Positions 22,129 through 29,143 of a stretch of 64,000 nucleotides of DNA are shown piece after piece. The DNA comes from a phage. The position numbers and the translations under genes were made by a program. The stretch is from the sequence record OZ335958.1; one strand, 5' to 3'. Every line of letters starts with the position of its first letter. Within the stretch, counting starts at the first letter, position 1. The notes beneath the pieces were generated by a model. It was not told the DNA's origin, did not search any database, and worked only from the letters and a program-made list of their open reading frames with translations.

Positions 22129-22417
22129 ATCGGTGTTTGCAATGACGGCATTTATAACGAAGATTACTAGTCTGCCAATGAACTAATTGTACCTGTTCAG
22201 TACCGCATTCAGGACAATTAGGAACGTTTTTAGAAGCCCTTTCGCGACGTTCAACCATAGCCATAATGGCATCCCAAGCTGGAGGTTTAAAATCTAAATC
22301 GTCACAACCATGAATCTTTCCACGCATTTCCAGATCGTCTTCTTCACCAGCCATAATAATTTTAATTAGACTGGAATTACTTGAAGCTGCAATATCTTCT
22401 AATAGACGCTTTTTCAT
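22100..22417 (-). CDS. zinc-ribbon protein
   Basis: 105 aa with CPECG...CRHC C4 motif. Confidence 0.4.
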
Positions 22418-23343
22418 TTCAGCACCTCAATAGCATTACGTAAACCATTTGCTTTTGCATTAAGAGCTTTTAACAATTTGGTGTGTTCGGCAATCTGGGC
22501 TTCAACTTCAATCAAACGAGCATTGAGATATTCACGTTCTTCGCTCAAGTTATCAATCTTTTCTACTTTAGGCTCTTTTACAACTGTCTTATATGTATTA
22601 GGGTTCTTCAGTTTAATTAGAATGCGTGAACTGTATAACATTGAACCATTATCTTCGGTTTCGTCATACATTTCTACTACGTCCATGATTTTTAACATCA
22701 TGCGAAGTTTATAAGACAACGAACGAATAGTTTTGTTGTGCTTATTAATTTCTTTAGAGTTCATGGTGCCGAGATTACGTGAGTAATAATAAGGAACCTG
22801 GATATTAATTAATACTGATGAACCACCTGGCTTGTGTGTTACTTCATCAGCAATAACCCAGTCCTTAACATGAACTGTATTTGTACGGTCATCACCCGCG
22901 GTAAACAGTTTGCGAGCATGCTTAAAAAGCATATTCACTTGGGTATTGAATTGACAAGCAAATTTATCAGCAAATTTAGTTTCAGGAATGGTAGATAGCC
23001 AATCAGCTAAATGGGTCTTTTTAACATCGTTAACAATAGTAAATTCAACCAAATCGGTTATAGATGTCGCAGATTTAATGAAGCTCGGCTTCATAAAGTT
23101 TTTAATGTTATCACGAGCTACAGTAGAAGATAACATACGAGAACGTTTAAACCATTCAAGCAAATTGCCTAATGAATGAGAATAGGCGTTCTGAGTATCT
23201 TTACAGATATGATTTTCCTGGCCAACATATTGAAGGAAATCACGAAGAATATTATTGATTACTGCTCTGTGTCCGATCTGATAATTACGATGTTTAGTAA
23301 TAAGACTGTCAAAATAATCAATATAATGTTTACGAGTTTTCAT
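22414..23343 (-). CDS. hypothetical protein with C-terminal coiled coil (array member 1)
   Basis: 309 aa, ATG start; last about 45 residues heptad-like. Confidence 0.5.
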   Translation of the reverse strand: MKTRKHYIDYFDSLITKHRNYQIGHRAVINNILRDFLQYVGQENHICKDTQNAYSHSLGNLLEWFKRSRMLSSTVARDNIKNFMKPSFIKSATSITDLVEFTIVNDVKKTHLADWLSTIPETKFADKFACQFNTQVNMLFKHARKLFTAGDDRTNTVHVKDWVIADEVTHKPGGSSVLINIQVPYYYSRNLGTMNSKEINKHNKTIRSLSYKLRMMLKIMDVVEMYDETEDNGSMLYSSRILIKLKNPNTYKTVVKEPKVEKIDNLSEEREYLNARLIEVEAQIAEHTKLLKALNAKANGLRNAIEVLK

Positions 23344-23395
23344 GTTCTTCTCACTTGGTTAATGATTTATGCTCCGAGCCATCCTTGGCTTTAAA

Positions 23396-24397
23396 TTACT
23401 TAATTAATTGTAAAGCTTGTTCAAGACGATCTAGGCGATTAACAGATTCTTCCCAAATCCTTTTAGCCTGCTCATAATCTTTCTGCGCTTTATTAGAAAT
23501 TTCTAGAACTTCTTTATAAGCTTTTTCTAGTGCAATAACTTCTGGACGAATTTCTACCGGTTCAGGTGAATCGTCAAGACATTCCATTAGTTCCTCAAGG
23601 GTAGTTTCTTCTTTAGGAGTATTCACAATTTCATCACATTTTTGTTGGTAAATTTCTTTATCAGTCGGTGAGTACGCACACTTTACTTCACGGAGACTAA
23701 CTACAATTTTATATCCTTCCCAACCGCATATATTCTTAAAAGGATAAGTATGAATATTTTCTACTGTTTCCATACAAAGTAATGCGGTCTCTAACTGACG
23801 AGTTATATCGCTAGCAATTGAGAAAAATTTATTAATGTTCTTTTGATTAGCTTCTGGTGTAAAAAATTCATAATTCACAAAAATAGCTGCTTTATTTTTA
23901 TCAAGCTCATATTCTTTTATGATAATCATATCAGAAGCCCAAGGATGGATTTGACGATAATCACCATAGCATAATTTAGAAGCTGATTTTAGAAGTTGCT
24001 TCTTGAAAAGTCTGAAATTACTAATCCAACGACGAGTAAAAATATTCTCAGGGTCTTCTTTATTATTAAGATGATAAGAATTAACATCACCGAACCAATT
24101 ATATCCTACTACATCTTTAGTTCGTTTAATTTCTTTCCCAAATTTACTAAGAATATCTCTGTTGACTAAGTATGAAAGAAGACGAGAACCTTTAAAGGTT
24201 TCCTTAATATCATCTTTATATTCGCAACTAGAAATTTTATGAACTTCATGAATAAATTTGTCGGAAGAAACAATACTTGCATCAGTATTGTTGAGCCACT
24301 GATTGATAATAGAAAGAACACTATTCTGACTAGACATAGATTTAACTTTATCATCAATAACGCTATTGAATGATTTGATATATTCGTTACGAGTCAT
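23396..24397 (-). CDS. hypothetical protein with C-terminal coiled coil (array member 2)
   Basis: ATG at 24397 with GAGGAG RBS preferred over track start 24427; about 333 aa. Confidence 0.5.
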   Translation of the reverse strand: MTRNEYIKSFNSVIDDKVKSMSSQNSVLSIINQWLNNTDASIVSSDKFIHEVHKISSCEYKDDIKETFKGSRLLSYLVNRDILSKFGKEIKRTKDVVGYNWFGDVNSYHLNNKEDPENIFTRRWISNFRLFKKQLLKSASKLCYGDYRQIHPWASDMIIIKEYELDKNKAAIFVNYEFFTPEANQKNINKFFSIASDITRQLETALLCMETVENIHTYPFKNICGWEGYKIVVSLREVKCAYSPTDKEIYQQKCDEIVNTPKEETTLEELMECLDDSPEPVEIRPEVIALEKAYKEVLEISNKAQKDYEQAKRIWEESVNRLDRLEQALQLIK

Positions 24398-24454
24398 ATT
24401 AATCTCCTCAGTAGAAAGTAAGAACATTATACCACATCCTTGTGGCGAAGTAAA

Positions 24455-25480
24455 CTAGTTTAGTGCATTTAGTGCATTGTTCAGTTTAGAACGTTGCTTC
24501 GTGAGATTTTTGACTTTTTCTTGAGCTTTTTCTAGTATCTTTTCAGCTTCTAACACTTCATTAGTTGCTTTAATGAGTTCATCATCTACTGCCTTGATAG
24601 ACTTCTCAATCGCATCTGCATGCCATTTTTCAACAGGTTTAAGACTCGGATTTTCAACAGGAAGAAAATTCGCTTTATTGAATTTCCATGCATCCTTATT
24701 ACCTGAACTATACATCCAAAATTTAGGATCGTTTGATGAGTAATTGGATAAATTTAAGTTATAGTTATCTTGTACTTCCTGCTTTTTCTCTTGCGGGATT
24801 TCGTCCTTTCTCAAAAAATCATATTTAAATGAAACGATCATATCAAGTTCATACGTTGTTGTATGTTCCCAATTTCGCTCAAAATGAGGTAAAATCTTAG
24901 ACTGAACCGCGGCAACTACATCCATATACTTAAATGCTTCTGTCAACTGTGATTTAAGGCATTCACAAATTGAAAGAGAATTTTTTGTATTAGGTTTAAA
25001 GCTAATTCGTGCAGTTCTGTTATTTTCTTTTAATGGTCTTACTTCCATCTGAAGAGTATAACCATCAAATTTCAGATTCTTTAAGTTAATATCAGAACCT
25101 TTTAATCGACTCGCAATTGATAAAATTTGTTTTAATTGTTTACGGAATAGAGCAATAAATCTCCATTCAATACGATAATGATTTGGATTGAAAAATCCAG
25201 ATGATAAATCGACCTTACTTTGACCAACGCCTTGAACAAATAGAGGATTTTTATAATCAATAGTTTTACAGAAATCGGTGAGCTGCTCACGAGCAGTCAT
25301 TTGTGTAATATACCCCGCTTTACTAAAATGACGTAACCATTCACTGCTATTCATATATTTAAAGTGAATATCACTATTAACTTTATCAGGGTCTAAATTA
25401 TTTTGACACAAAAATGTCATAACATCACGAGTATAGCTGGCATTACGAACCATATCTTCAATTTGAGAACGAGTTTTCAT
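24455..25480 (-). CDS. hypothetical protein with C-terminal coiled coil (array member 3)
   Basis: 341 aa; N-terminus MKTRSQ resembles member 1 MKTRKH. Confidence 0.5.
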   Translation of the reverse strand: MKTRSQIEDMVRNASYTRDVMTFLCQNNLDPDKVNSDIHFKYMNSSEWLRHFSKAGYITQMTAREQLTDFCKTIDYKNPLFVQGVGQSKVDLSSGFFNPNHYRIEWRFIALFRKQLKQILSIASRLKGSDINLKNLKFDGYTLQMEVRPLKENNRTARISFKPNTKNSLSICECLKSQLTEAFKYMDVVAAVQSKILPHFERNWEHTTTYELDMIVSFKYDFLRKDEIPQEKKQEVQDNYNLNLSNYSSNDPKFWMYSSGNKDAWKFNKANFLPVENPSLKPVEKWHADAIEKSIKAVDDELIKATNEVLEAEKILEKAQEKVKNLTKQRSKLNNALNALN

Positions 25481-25488
25481 GGTGTTCC

Positions 25489-26379
25489 TTAAGATTTAAG
25501 TAAATCAACAATTTTAATTAACTTTTCACGCTCAGATTTAGCTTTACTACTCAGTCCAGATAGTCTGAAAATTTCATCATCATATTGTTGAATGGAAATA
25601 TTCAGCTCTTCAATCTGTTTATTAAAATAATCAATTTGTTCAGAATGTTTTTCGTTACTACGAACTGGTACAGGTTTCGTAGGCAATGTAGTTGAACTGG
25701 ATTCATCCGGGCGATAAATTAAAATACAACTTGAACCAATAGGGCATTTTGCACCAGATGAATATTCTAATGTTCCAGCTTCTTTTAAAACTTCAAAAGC
25801 TAAACAGAGATGATGCCCCATATTAACATAATCTGTGGAGCGAGCTCTGATGTAATAATCATCGCCACGAATACTAAATTTAAAGCATTTAAGGTCTTCC
25901 GTATTATTGGTCTTAAAAATCATTTGTTTATCTAGACCTTTAGCTAATCGAGCGCCTAATGCTAATAATCGTCGTTGATTTTCCCACAAATCCACAATCA
26001 TTTGATCGAATGATAATTTCGGCATTAGTCGACCATAAAGGTCATATCCTTTATTATAATTACGAAGGATTTCACTCGCGTTAATACGAGACAATGCTCC
26101 AATTTTATTAAGAGCTTTCATAATGCGATTAGATAAACTCATTCCAGACCCATTTGTTCGCTGTAAATGTTTTTCTAATCCAAATCCAATATCAACTTTA
26201 AACTTATCTAAAATTTCTGCATGAACATCTCTGTCGATAACATTCAAATCCAAAGTTGGGTTAAATCTATGAAAAAATTTATCTGGCTCTGCACTGCGAA
26301 ATACAGTCCATTCATTCATCATTTTTTTATTAACTAAAGATTTAATTACTGCATTGACATTATTAATTACTACTGACAT
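25489..26379 (-). CDS. hypothetical protein with C-terminal coiled coil (array member 4)
   Basis: Track ORF starts at TTG 26400; ATG at 26379 with GAGG RBS gives 296 aa. Confidence 0.5.
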   Translation of the reverse strand: MSVVINNVNAVIKSLVNKKMMNEWTVFRSAEPDKFFHRFNPTLDLNVIDRDVHAEILDKFKVDIGFGLEKHLQRTNGSGMSLSNRIMKALNKIGALSRINASEILRNYNKGYDLYGRLMPKLSFDQMIVDLWENQRRLLALGARLAKGLDKQMIFKTNNTEDLKCFKFSIRGDDYYIRARSTDYVNMGHHLCLAFEVLKEAGTLEYSSGAKCPIGSSCILIYRPDESSSTTLPTKPVPVRSNEKHSEQIDYFNKQIEELNISIQQYDDEIFRLSGLSSKAKSEREKLIKIVDLLKS

Positions 26380-26386
26380 ATTTTCC

Positions 26387-26794
26387 TCACTCAATTTCAA
26401 TTTTACTAAATATACAGAATAAGATGGAACAGACTATATAAGCACCACACACAGATTGAACTAATACCATTCCAAAGAACCAAACAATATTATCAAACAA
26501 TGTCTGTTTTACGTCGAAAGGACGTAAACTTACAGTAATATTATCACCTTTTTCTATTGAAGAATACATCTCTGGGGAAATATATTCACTAAATCTATAA
26601 CCGTCTTTGAGTTCATATACGGCAATAAACGATAAACTAGACCCTTTTCCTTGCGTTCCTGTAATGGTATTAACTACAGTAACATCATAATCTTTATAAT
26701 GCATATAATCATTAATTGCGTAATAACCATATGCAATTACTACACATAAACAACATATCAATAAATTCAATCTTTTAATTATCAACTGTTTCAT
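26387..26794 (-). CDS. membrane protein
   Basis: 135 aa; N- and C-terminal hydrophobic segments. Confidence 0.45.
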   Translation of the reverse strand: MKQLIIKRLNLLICCLCVVIAYGYYAINDYMHYKDYDVTVVNTITGTQGKGSSLSFIAVYELKDGYRFSEYISPEMYSSIEKGDNITVSLRPFDVKQTLFDNIVWFFGMVLVQSVCGAYIVCSILFCIFSKIEIE

Positions 26795-26849: not shown

Positions 26850-27377
26850 TTATGCGAGTACCGTCTTTAACCGTTCTTCAAACTTCCGAAGAGTATTTTG
26901 GCGTTCAGCTCTTTGCTTTTTGTAAGTTTCAATACGCTCTGAAATGAGAGTGTATCGTTCATTTACTGATTCTTTCATAAAATCAGGAATTTCACGAGAA
27001 GCTTTAATCTCGTCAAATTTATCAATAACAGCTTGCTCTTCAGCAATTAAGTTATCATACATTAAAATATCTTTCTTGATGAACTCAATATCTTCTTGAG
27101 TTACACGAGATAATTTAGATGCTTTATCCTTTTTGTACTGTTCGTTAGTATCACGAGACCAGTGTAATGTACGATTTTTATTCGTATTTTTGTAAATTTC
27201 TACAATACCGATCTCATCAATAATAACGATCCAATTCCAACGGGATTTGTAAATTTGTCCTCCATCAACAGTGATTTCACCTCCGATTGAGATGTCATTA
27301 AAGAACTTGCTTTGTGCCTCAGATTTAAATTTACCATCGTTGTAATTTACCAAGTTGAAAATATCTTTAGCGTTCAT
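26850..27377 (-). CDS. hypothetical protein
   Basis: 175 aa; early-type promoter immediately upstream. Confidence 0.45.
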   Translation of the reverse strand: MNAKDIFNLVNYNDGKFKSEAQSKFFNDISIGGEITVDGGQIYKSRWNWIVIIDEIGIVEIYKNTNKNRTLHWSRDTNEQYKKDKASKLSRVTQEDIEFIKKDILMYDNLIAEEQAVIDKFDEIKASREIPDFMKESVNERYTLISERIETYKKQRAERQNTLRKFEERLKTVLA

Positions 27378-27841: not shown

Positions 27842-28810
27842 TTATTTCAGAAGAGTAACCTCAGCGATTTCTTCCCAACCGTTTTTGTCGGTCATAATAA
27901 AGTCAGCAAGATAAAGAGCAGTACGCAGTGAAACATTGCGTAAACGATTAACATTAACTTTCATCCATGATAATGCTTTATAAGTTTCTTCATCAGAAAG
28001 ACCGCGCTTTTGCATCATGTCAGTTGAAAGAATAACATCTTCAACCCTGACCATAATTTCTTCATTAGTATGAACACCCAAATCCAAATAAACTGAGCGG
28101 GACACTAATGCTTGTAAATGTGGAGCAAGTTTAGTACCGCGGTCTAATTCGCGGTCAATGTCAACGTTTGTGATAAAAACAATCGTTCCTTTAAATTCAA
28201 ACTCACGCTCAATGCCTTTTTCTTCTAAGTAAGAAGACGCAGTGCTCCAGCAGACTTTACGGGTCTCTCCAGTGTCCAGAGCGGCTTTTAGAAGATTAAG
28301 AATGTCCATATCAGAGAAAACATCCACATCATCAATCAAAAGGACAGAATTCTCTTCACGATTATTCCAAAGCTGCTCATAAAGACCAATACCAGAGATT
28401 TTACCATTAATGCTTTTATATTCAATGTATCCAATATCATTTGCTTTATTCAAAGCTTTATCTAAAGAATACGTTTTACCAATACCTGCTGCACCAGAGA
28501 TAATCAATGAACGAATATTTCCATTAATAATACCATTCGTCATCATTCCCATAACATTAAATCTTTTATTAATGCGGGTTTTCATATCTTCATACGATTC
28601 TTTAACTTCTTCAACTTTTACACCATCATATGAAATATCTGATTTGTAAACCCAAACACCGCGACGTTTACCGTCAATTTCAACAAAAACTTTACCATCT
28701 CCTTGTGCATCTACCGGAGCATTATCTGGGAACCATTCGCCTAAGAGCTCAAAAGTTCCAGAGATTTCTTTACCGAAGTAGATACCCTTATTGATAGTTA
28801 CAGTTTTCAT
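27842..28810 (-). CDS. P-loop ATPase (AAA-like)
   Basis: Walker A GAAGIGKT, Walker B LLIDDVD; track start 28828 is GTG, ATG at 28810 has GGAG RBS. Confidence 0.55.
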   Translation of the reverse strand: MKTVTINKGIYFGKEISGTFELLGEWFPDNAPVDAQGDGKVFVEIDGKRRGVWVYKSDISYDGVKVEEVKESYEDMKTRINKRFNVMGMMTNGIINGNIRSLIISGAAGIGKTYSLDKALNKANDIGYIEYKSINGKISGIGLYEQLWNNREENSVLLIDDVDVFSDMDILNLLKAALDTGETRKVCWSTASSYLEEKGIEREFEFKGTIVFITNVDIDRELDRGTKLAPHLQALVSRSVYLDLGVHTNEEIMVRVEDVILSTDMMQKRGLSDEETYKALSWMKVNVNRLRNVSLRTALYLADFIMTDKNGWEEIAEVTLLK

Positions 28811-28846
28811 TTTATTCTCCAATTTCACATTTGTTTTGATAGGGTA

Positions 28847-28879: not shown

Positions 28880-29143
28880 TTATTTTAATGTTTGCCAAAT
28901 TTTTACTGCTTCGCGACGAGATACTTCTACAGCTCCAAGTTCTACGGCTTTTTGGCGTCGGCGAGCATGTAAGTCATAATGTTTAATGCGTTTATCTTGA
29001 AACCAAGAACGTTTCATTCCTATTGCTTCTGCCATTTTATGAAGCTCTTCAATATCTCCATCAGTGAACATATGACAATTTTTAGTTGGATGACCGCGAA
29101 GTTTCCATCCATGATTCATTAAAACATCTACGTAAACTGTCAT
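28880..29143 (-). CDS. small hypothetical protein (possibly DUF4031-like)
   Basis: 87 aa; MTVYVD...HYDL...GA.EVSRREA pattern resembles a phage DUF from memory only. Confidence 0.35.
   Translation of the reverse strand: MTVYVDVLMNHGWKLRGHPTKNCHMFTDGDIEELHKMAEAIGMKRSWFQDKRIKHYDLHARRRQKAVELGAVEVSRREAVKIWQTLK

Follow-up and report, generated by a model that had tools for sequence, protein, structure and literature searches.

Four tandem genes beside nrdC in a T4-like phage encode a probable family of divergent proteins with a common heptad tail that includes the anti-Dsr1 protein NrdC.5

The closest described relative of the genes considered here is nrdC.5 of phage T4, whose product counters the defence protein Dsr1. 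A T4 deletion mutant no longer plates on ECOR17 and regains plating when dsr1 is deleted, MG1655 with dsr1 cloned from ECOR17 is protected against the deletion mutant, and expression of T4 nrdC.5 brings back plating of this mutant on MG1655 carrying ECOR17 dsr1 (Srikant 2022, eLife, PMC9391042). Dsr1 is a SIR2 NADase with a bilobed TPR sensor, common to Avs7 and to proteins with other effectors, and the trigger of this sensor is the phage major capsid protein, as shown for a Drexlerviridae phage (PMC12803255). The stretch analysed here, 64,000 nucleotides of sequence record OZ335958.1 (the window), carries an orthologue of NrdC.5 within a run of four consecutive genes, nrdC.3–nrdC.6. The analysis supports a single family for these four genes, in which nrdC.3 and nrdC.4 are firmly related, the inclusion of nrdC.5 is well supported, and that of nrdC.6 is probable. 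A paralogous family expanded in tandem had been proposed from the letters of the DNA alone (the original prediction), and it stands with the strength graded in this way.

The source phage of the window is a T4-like Tequatrovirus; a 5-kb query around the array matched 742 phage records, nearly all of them Tequatrovirus, with a best identity of 97%. Gene names, which had seemed unassignable before, were taken from the annotated relative Shfl2, where nrdC.3–nrdC.6 are flanked by nrdC/nrdC.1/nrdC.2 and by nrdC.7–nrdC.11, and the naming is backed by the records of T2, PP01, RB69, T4T, and RB51, with nrdC.5 so named in T2 and PP01. The four predicted open reading frames (ORFs) proved to be real, and all lie on the minus strand, which the original prediction had not given:

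22414..23343, minus strand: nrdC.3, 309 amino acids; closest paralogue nrdC.4; a highly polymorphic allele; named from the Shfl2 and RB69 annotations.
23396..24397, minus strand: nrdC.4, 333 amino acids; PHROG 1435.
24455..25480, minus strand: nrdC.5, 341 amino acids; DUF7235; orthologue of the T4 anti-Dsr1 protein, 92% amino acid identity.
25489..26379, minus strand: nrdC.6, 296 amino acids; the most conserved and most widespread of the four.
24426..24454, minus strand: early-type promoter before nrdC.4; GTTTAC, a 17-nucleotide spacer, and TATAAT, read directly from the sequence; 10 of 12 matches in a scan, with an upstream TG.

Each of these starts is backed by a Shine-Dalgarno sequence, namely GAGAAG before the nrdC.3 ATG at 23343, GAGGAG before the nrdC.4 ATG at 24397, AAGGA before the nrdC.5 ATG at 25480, and GAGGA before the nrdC.6 ATG at 26379. 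Longer mechanical ORFs, extending up to 24427 and 26400, were rejected as true starts; the 333-residue start of nrdC.4 is taken as real because the ATG at 24427 of its longer ORF falls within the −10 box of the promoter. From the promoter sequence, expression of the four genes appears to be early, at least partly from a T4 early promoter. The N terminus MKTR, noted previously in two of the proteins, belongs to nrdC.3 and nrdC.5, and nrdC.4 begins with MTR. In many GenBank records nrdC.3–nrdC.6 and their neighbors are mis-annotated as "thioredoxin", a label evidently spread via the gene name nrdC.x; Pfam detects no thioredoxin domain in the four proteins or in the mis-annotated neighbors.

The bodies of the four proteins are as divergent as had been predicted, and pairwise alignment of profile hidden Markov models, proposed at the same time as a check, related nrdC.3 to nrdC.4 and nrdC.4 to nrdC.5, was marginal for nrdC.5/nrdC.6, and was negative by sequence for nrdC.4/nrdC.6. 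For nrdC.3 and nrdC.4, BLASTP gives 26% identity (E = 7e-9) and hhalign a probability of 98% (E = 6.5e-14, or 9e-15 without the tails), and both belong to PHROG 1435 (phrog_1435; full-length matches, E = 1e-116 for nrdC.3 and 3e-164 for nrdC.4). The pair nrdC.4/nrdC.5 has a BLASTP E-value of 0.009 and an hhalign E-value of 1.7e-4 across 224 collinear columns, nrdC.4/nrdC.6 an hhalign E-value of 4e-3 across 196 collinear columns, and nrdC.5/nrdC.6 an hhalign E-value of 0.024. All three of these weak alignments bring the same two motifs into register, K-x-[FL]-x-K-x-G-x-LS-[RK]..A...L..F.K and, in a helix, F[RK]...[RK].LL..A.[RK]L..G. Because effects of the tails and of composition had to be excluded, the comparisons were repeated with the tails removed and against a null in which the columns of one partner were permuted singly and in blocks of 8 (120 permutations). 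The bodies of nrdC.4 and nrdC.5 score 37.3 against a null mean of 14–16 (standard deviation ∼2.8, maximum 27.8), a value reached by 0 of the 120 permutations, and nrdC.5/nrdC.6 score 22.3 against a null maximum of 22.2 (again 0 of 120). The score of 19.8 for nrdC.4/nrdC.6 was reached by 11 of 120 permutations and is not significant.

Structural comparison extends the relationship to nrdC.6. The AlphaFold2 (AF2) model of nrdC.4 is of good quality (predicted local distance difference test (pLDDT) 81.7, predicted template modeling score (pTM) 0.67) and is composed, in order, of an N-terminal helical bundle, three short strands, a helix, a hairpin, a second helix, a second hairpin, and further helices, followed by a disordered linker (residues 274–284) and a long helix (residues 285–332). 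A Foldseek search of BFVD with this model returned 19 matches at E ≤0.001. The top two are short fragments of nrdC.4 itself (155–158 amino acids, 87–96% identical), and the others are mostly uncharacterized proteins of ∼280–370 amino acids from T4-like phages of many genera, with Pectobacterium PM2, Klebsiella Mineola, Acinetobacter Acj61 and Acj9, Erwinia Cronus, and Serratia PS2 among the sources. NrdC.6 of JS10 (C4MZI0) is matched over its full length, with 338 aligned columns (E = 1.2e-5, probability 1.0). The TM-scores of the distant matches are modest (≤0.49), and lower values would be expected where a body is followed by a flexible linker and a long free helix. Membership of nrdC.6 in the family is considered probable, supported mainly by structure, with marginal sequence evidence. 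The AF2 model of nrdC.5, which was used for the order of secondary structure and for the tail only, has the same element order as that of nrdC.4.

The feature that unites all four proteins is a charged heptad helix at the C terminus, which was found in each of them as predicted, with a length of 42–59 residues and a single unbroken register. Within these tails 75–88% of the a/d positions are hydrophobic, versus 18–33% elsewhere, and 33–39% of the residues are charged:

22417..22542, minus strand: nrdC.3 tail helix, residues 268–309; a/d positions 83% hydrophobic.
23399..23545, minus strand: nrdC.4 tail helix, residues 285–333; a single helix (285–332) in the AF2 model; a/d positions 86% hydrophobic; end RLEQALQLIK.
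24458..24634, minus strand: nrdC.5 tail helix, residues 283–341; helix 282–340 in the AF2 model; a/d positions 88% hydrophobic; end KLNNALNALN.
25492..25656, minus strand: nrdC.6 tail helix, residues 242–296; a/d positions 75% hydrophobic; end KLIKIVDLLKS.

Counted from the C terminus, the four tails are in a common heptad register and share the terminal motif L-x-x-[A/I]-[I/L/V]-x-x-L-[K/N]. An ad hoc heptad score, compared across the 74 window ORFs of at least 100 amino acids, has its maximum in the C-terminal tail of all four proteins, which rank 1, 3, 4, and 8, and the observed scores were matched by 0, 1, 2, and 19 of 500 per-protein shuffles. The sole comparable scorer in the window, tied for the top score, is a 546-residue ORF, presumably the Rad50-like gp46 to judge by its N-terminal residues and its place in the genome. 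The tails thus combine the continuous heptad, hydrophobic a/d positions, and long helix of a coiled coil. In the AF2 monomer models of nrdC.4 and nrdC.5 the long helix is left unpacked, and in the latter it is the sole confident part (residues 282–340, pLDDT 64–90). In each of the four family alignments no region is better conserved than the tail; for nrdC.3 the tail ranks first (0.89), and in nrdC.6 the invariant residues include the surface positions Asp267, Asp268, Glu269, Lys281, Glu283, and Arg284. Such conservation, surface positions included, suggests that the tail takes part in a specific interaction and is not simply a generic spacer. The product of nrdC.8 (26850–27377, minus strand; 175 amino acids), encoded two genes upstream of the array, also has a charged heptad helix at its end (...RKFEERLKTVLA), with a heptad score of 0.58 that is joint fifth among the 74 ORFs, and this tail module may be related to those of the array.

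Across the phage collection a match was found in 654 records for nrdC.3, 554 for nrdC.4, 544 for nrdC.5, and 742 for nrdC.6. Synteny among T-even relatives, another of the checks suggested earlier, revealed a variable number of copies at the locus next to nrdC:

This window and T4 (Tequatrovirus): nrdC.3, nrdC.4, nrdC.5, and nrdC.6.
RB69 (Mosigvirus): nrdC.3, nrdC.5, and nrdC.6, without nrdC.4.
VR20 (Gaprivervirus) and MN04 (Dhakavirus): nrdC.4, nrdC.5, and nrdC.6, without nrdC.3.
ACG-C40: nrdC.6 intact, with a remnant of nrdC.5 and nrdC.3.
Karamvirus, Jiaodavirus, and Acinetobacter phage Abraxas: a single recognizable member beside nrdC, each with a coiled C-terminal tail.
JSE (Krischvirus): no member at this locus.

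The four genes have diverged from their T4 counterparts to different extents, with amino acid identities of 61% for nrdC.3, 91% for nrdC.4, 92% for nrdC.5, and 97% for nrdC.6 and of 91–99.7% for neighboring genes. Compared with T4 nrdC.3 (L004, 7001–7927), the gene at 22414–23343 has a synonymous divergence (dS) of 1.12 versus 0.07–0.32 for neighboring genes; the N terminus and tail are conserved, the middle is 44–49% identical, and the alleles in the phage collection fall into three classes. The ratio of non-synonymous to synonymous divergence (dN/dS) relative to T4 is 0.17–0.28 for nrdC.3, nrdC.4, and nrdC.5, and 0.01–0.05 for gp49, nrdC.10, and nrdC.6. Positive selection in situ on nrdC.3 was rejected, with dS itself very high and a dN/dS of 0.28. 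The high dS indicates that nrdC.3 is an old allele exchanged by recombination.

Several rearranged copies were encountered. In the metagenome protein P0119, residues ∼145–268 of nrdC.5 are joined out of register to residues ∼136–309 of nrdC.3, and ACG-C40 (L006, 4805–5216) keeps only 68 codons from the start of nrdC.5 and 72 from the end of nrdC.3. Homologous recombination between paralogues was considered as their origin and rejected, since an out-of-register junction indicates illegitimate deletion. The annotated nrdC.5 of RB69 (AY303349; L005, 6640–7000) has a non-helical C terminus, with the expected tail (...KLFNAMNALKS) in another frame, suggestive of a frameshift, whether in the sequence record or in the phage itself. 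The nrdC.6 protein of Shigella phage Sf25 (P0121, 378 amino acids) contains an internal direct duplication of ∼82 residues that could be real or an assembly artefact.

With nrdC.5 published as disabling Dsr1, nrdC.3, nrdC.4, and nrdC.6 become good candidates for anti-immunity functions. On balance, we favor the view that nrdC.3–nrdC.6 are dispensable, fast-diverging early paralogues of one Straboviridae-wide protein design beside nrdC, in which an N-terminal helical bundle and an α/β core would be joined through a disordered linker to the conserved C-terminal coiled-coil helix of 42–59 residues. It also seems rather probable that they constitute a diversified early counter-defence family whose variable body binds the target and whose conserved tail oligomerizes. 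In such a family the proteins would be made early, ahead of the capsid protein and other late virion proteins, and each paralogue would bind and neutralize a host immune protein, with nrdC.3, nrdC.4, and nrdC.6 sharing the kind of function of nrdC.5. Specificity for the target would come from the variable body, and the conserved tail would serve homo- or hetero-oligomerization or docking onto a common partner. The set may then follow the defence repertoire of local hosts through duplication, loss, and allele exchange.

Comparison with T4 NrdC.5 is closest for the window orthologue itself, which matches PF23882 (DUF7235) over model positions 1–307 of 307 (410 bits versus a cut-off of 30, E = 9e-123). 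The products of nrdC.3, nrdC.4, and nrdC.6 resemble NrdC.5 in tandem position, length class, domain order, and tail and differ from it in pairwise identities that are below 30% or undetectable; a similar function would have to be extrapolated to them. We know of no published mechanism even for NrdC.5. The DSR2 inhibitor DSAD1 of phage SPbeta offers an analogy only, as a phage protein that neutralizes a SIR2 NADase whose C-terminal repeat sensor recognizes a virion protein. It differs in its target (DSR2, not Dsr1), host phage, and architecture, and no sequence or fold similarity between DSAD1 and the nrdC proteins was detected.

The neighborhood as a whole is an anti-defence island. Besides NrdC.5, the early dispensable cluster from gene 49 to nrdC.11 encodes gp49.2, an OLD inhibitor (PMC13096335), and NrdC.1, a Septu inhibitor (bioRxiv 2025.11.20.689424), and the nrdC.1–6 block of T4 can be deleted and is hence non-essential (PMC9825161). 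These two inhibitors have the same ecological role but are small, unrelated proteins (about 60–115 and 80 amino acids, respectively) without a coiled-coil tail or paralogous expansion. The distantly related T4-like Aeromonas phage Aes508 has a nicotinamide phosphoribosyltransferase gene (L011, 9709–11181) in the slot between nrdC.11 and gene 49. Genes for NAD salvage such as this one are of the kind used against NAD-depleting defences, and its presence in the slot fits the locus as a counter-defence island. Between nrdC.10 and nrdC.11 the window has an 87-residue ORF (28880–29143, minus strand) that is absent in T4; relatives (ACG-C40, Karamvirus, and Jiaodavirus) have an annotated DUF4031 gene of equal size (264 nucleotides) at this position. 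By position and size alone the ORF is a candidate DUF4031 gene, and it would add a further variable accessory gene to the island. The adjacent nrdC.10 (27842–28828, minus strand) encodes a Walker-A AAA/STAND-like ATPase domain, with weak Pfam matches to AAA_14, AAA_22, and nSTAND3, and is 99.7% identical to the T4 protein.

A bolder version, which we hold to be rather unlikely, would unite NrdC.3–6 and their single-copy Straboviridae relatives in one ancient modular immune-antagonist family, with nrdC.3 as a polymorphic specificity locus and a multi-specific inhibitor complex as the product. The cassette-like body would then recognize differing host sensors, such as TPR sensors of the Dsr1/Avs7 type, which occur in fusion with many different effectors; the in-register tails would assemble the paralogues as homo- or hetero-oligomers into an early inhibitor complex, and nrdC.3 would be swapped between phages through recombination at its conserved ends.

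A number of observations weigh against a shared counter-defence role for the four genes. T4 NrdC.5 is the sole tested case of an anti-Dsr1 effect (PMC9391042), the window protein being its 92% identical orthologue; the support comes from complementation, and binding and mechanism are extrapolated from it. The link to nrdC.6 consists of one Foldseek match (TM-scores 0.39/0.45) and of profile scores that are marginal or non-significant. With a dN/dS of 0.05, nrdC.6 evolves under strong purifying selection; it shares 97% identity with its T4 counterpart and is nearly universal, a conservation that fits a housekeeping or host-takeover function better than an arms-race gene. Structure prediction, successful for nrdC.4, gave a poor model of nrdC.5 outside the tail helix (overall pLDDT 49, from an alignment of 15 homologues, all but one of which had ≥83% identity to the query), and this model retrieved nothing from BFVD at E ≤0.001. 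No paralogue matched the defence and anti-defence families of PADLOC-DB except for a BrxC match at E = 0.008, which was rejected as a coiled-coil artefact, sequence searches of the PDB found no solved-structure relatives, DSAD1 included, and an NCBIfam search gave no meaningful match. That the tails oligomerize as coiled coils is itself suggested by sequence pattern alone.

Among the alternatives, the one that survives best, although we judge it improbable, is a role independent of defence, in host takeover or in nucleic-acid transactions, for example with an N-terminal helical DNA-binding region and a coiled-coil dimerizer, such that the anti-Dsr1 effect of NrdC.5 would be a specialization or indirect. 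The location of the genes among those of nucleotide metabolism and the strong, near-universal conservation of nrdC.6 in the T-even group are in keeping with it, as are the weak matches of nrdC.3 residues 30–86 to the N-terminal SAM-like core-binding domain of tyrosine recombinases. These matches are a lead only, lying below threshold both for PF02899 (13.9 bits versus a gathering cut-off of 22.3; Pfam E = 0.07) and for the NCBIfam recombinase model (18 bits versus a cut-off of 279; E = 1e-3).

It is less probable still, and in our estimation quite unlikely, that the four proteins are not all paralogous, with nrdC.6, and perhaps nrdC.5, unrelated to the others and the C-terminal helices convergent, generic coiled coils. 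In Pfam and PHROGs the four fall into three unrelated families, since the PF23882 model is matched by nrdC.5 and not by nrdC.3, nrdC.4, or nrdC.6, homologues of nrdC.4 bear the precomputed PF26897, and nrdC.6 belongs to phrog_2257 (full-length match, E = 2e-151), its homologues bearing PF26899. BLASTP finds nothing significant between nrdC.5 and nrdC.6, the nrdC.4/nrdC.6 profile score lies within the permutation null, and BLASTP between members from other genera does not bridge the families. A HMMER search with the nrdC.4 profile among 1.84 billion cluster representatives retrieved only nrdC.4 and nrdC.3; by sequence the family is extremely narrow, and such searches are insufficient on their own to connect the families. 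Against separate origins stand the body-only score of nrdC.4/nrdC.5, ∼7 standard deviations above the null, the full-length match between nrdC.4 and JS10 NrdC.6, the identical alignment of two motifs in three weak comparisons, the common tail register and terminal motif, and the size, order, strand, and position beside nrdC that the four genes share. A decoy role, in which the α/β core would mimic a tail terminator or completion protein (lambda gpU, SPP1 gp17-like, or gene transfer agent) to occupy immune sensors of virion proteins, is very improbable given that the trigger of Dsr1 is the major capsid protein, and the nrdC proteins, which are early and carry additional modules, helical at the N terminus and coiled-coil at the C terminus, show neither sequence similarity nor a strong structural match to such proteins, nor a virion role, and are not members of that group.

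The genes themselves are already known as T4 ORFs and the counter-defence role of nrdC.5 is already published, this being the one functional result for the four in the searchable literature, where neither the paralogy of nrdC.3–nrdC.6 nor a function of nrdC.3, nrdC.4, or nrdC.6 is described. Relative to that literature, the new elements are the family relationship, the tail shared in register by all four proteins, and the standing of nrdC.3, nrdC.4, and nrdC.6 as candidates. T4 is a reference phage, yet four early proteins of ∼300 amino acids, encoded in ∼4 kb, are annotated as hypothetical or wrongly as thioredoxin, and one probable superfamily is divided by Pfam and PHROGs into three unrelated entries. 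Paralogy to the anti-Dsr1 protein NrdC.5 makes the three orphan genes specific, testable counter-defence candidates, and the combination of a variable body with a constant coiled coil could explain how gain, loss, and allele exchange at the locus tune the host range of T-even phages.

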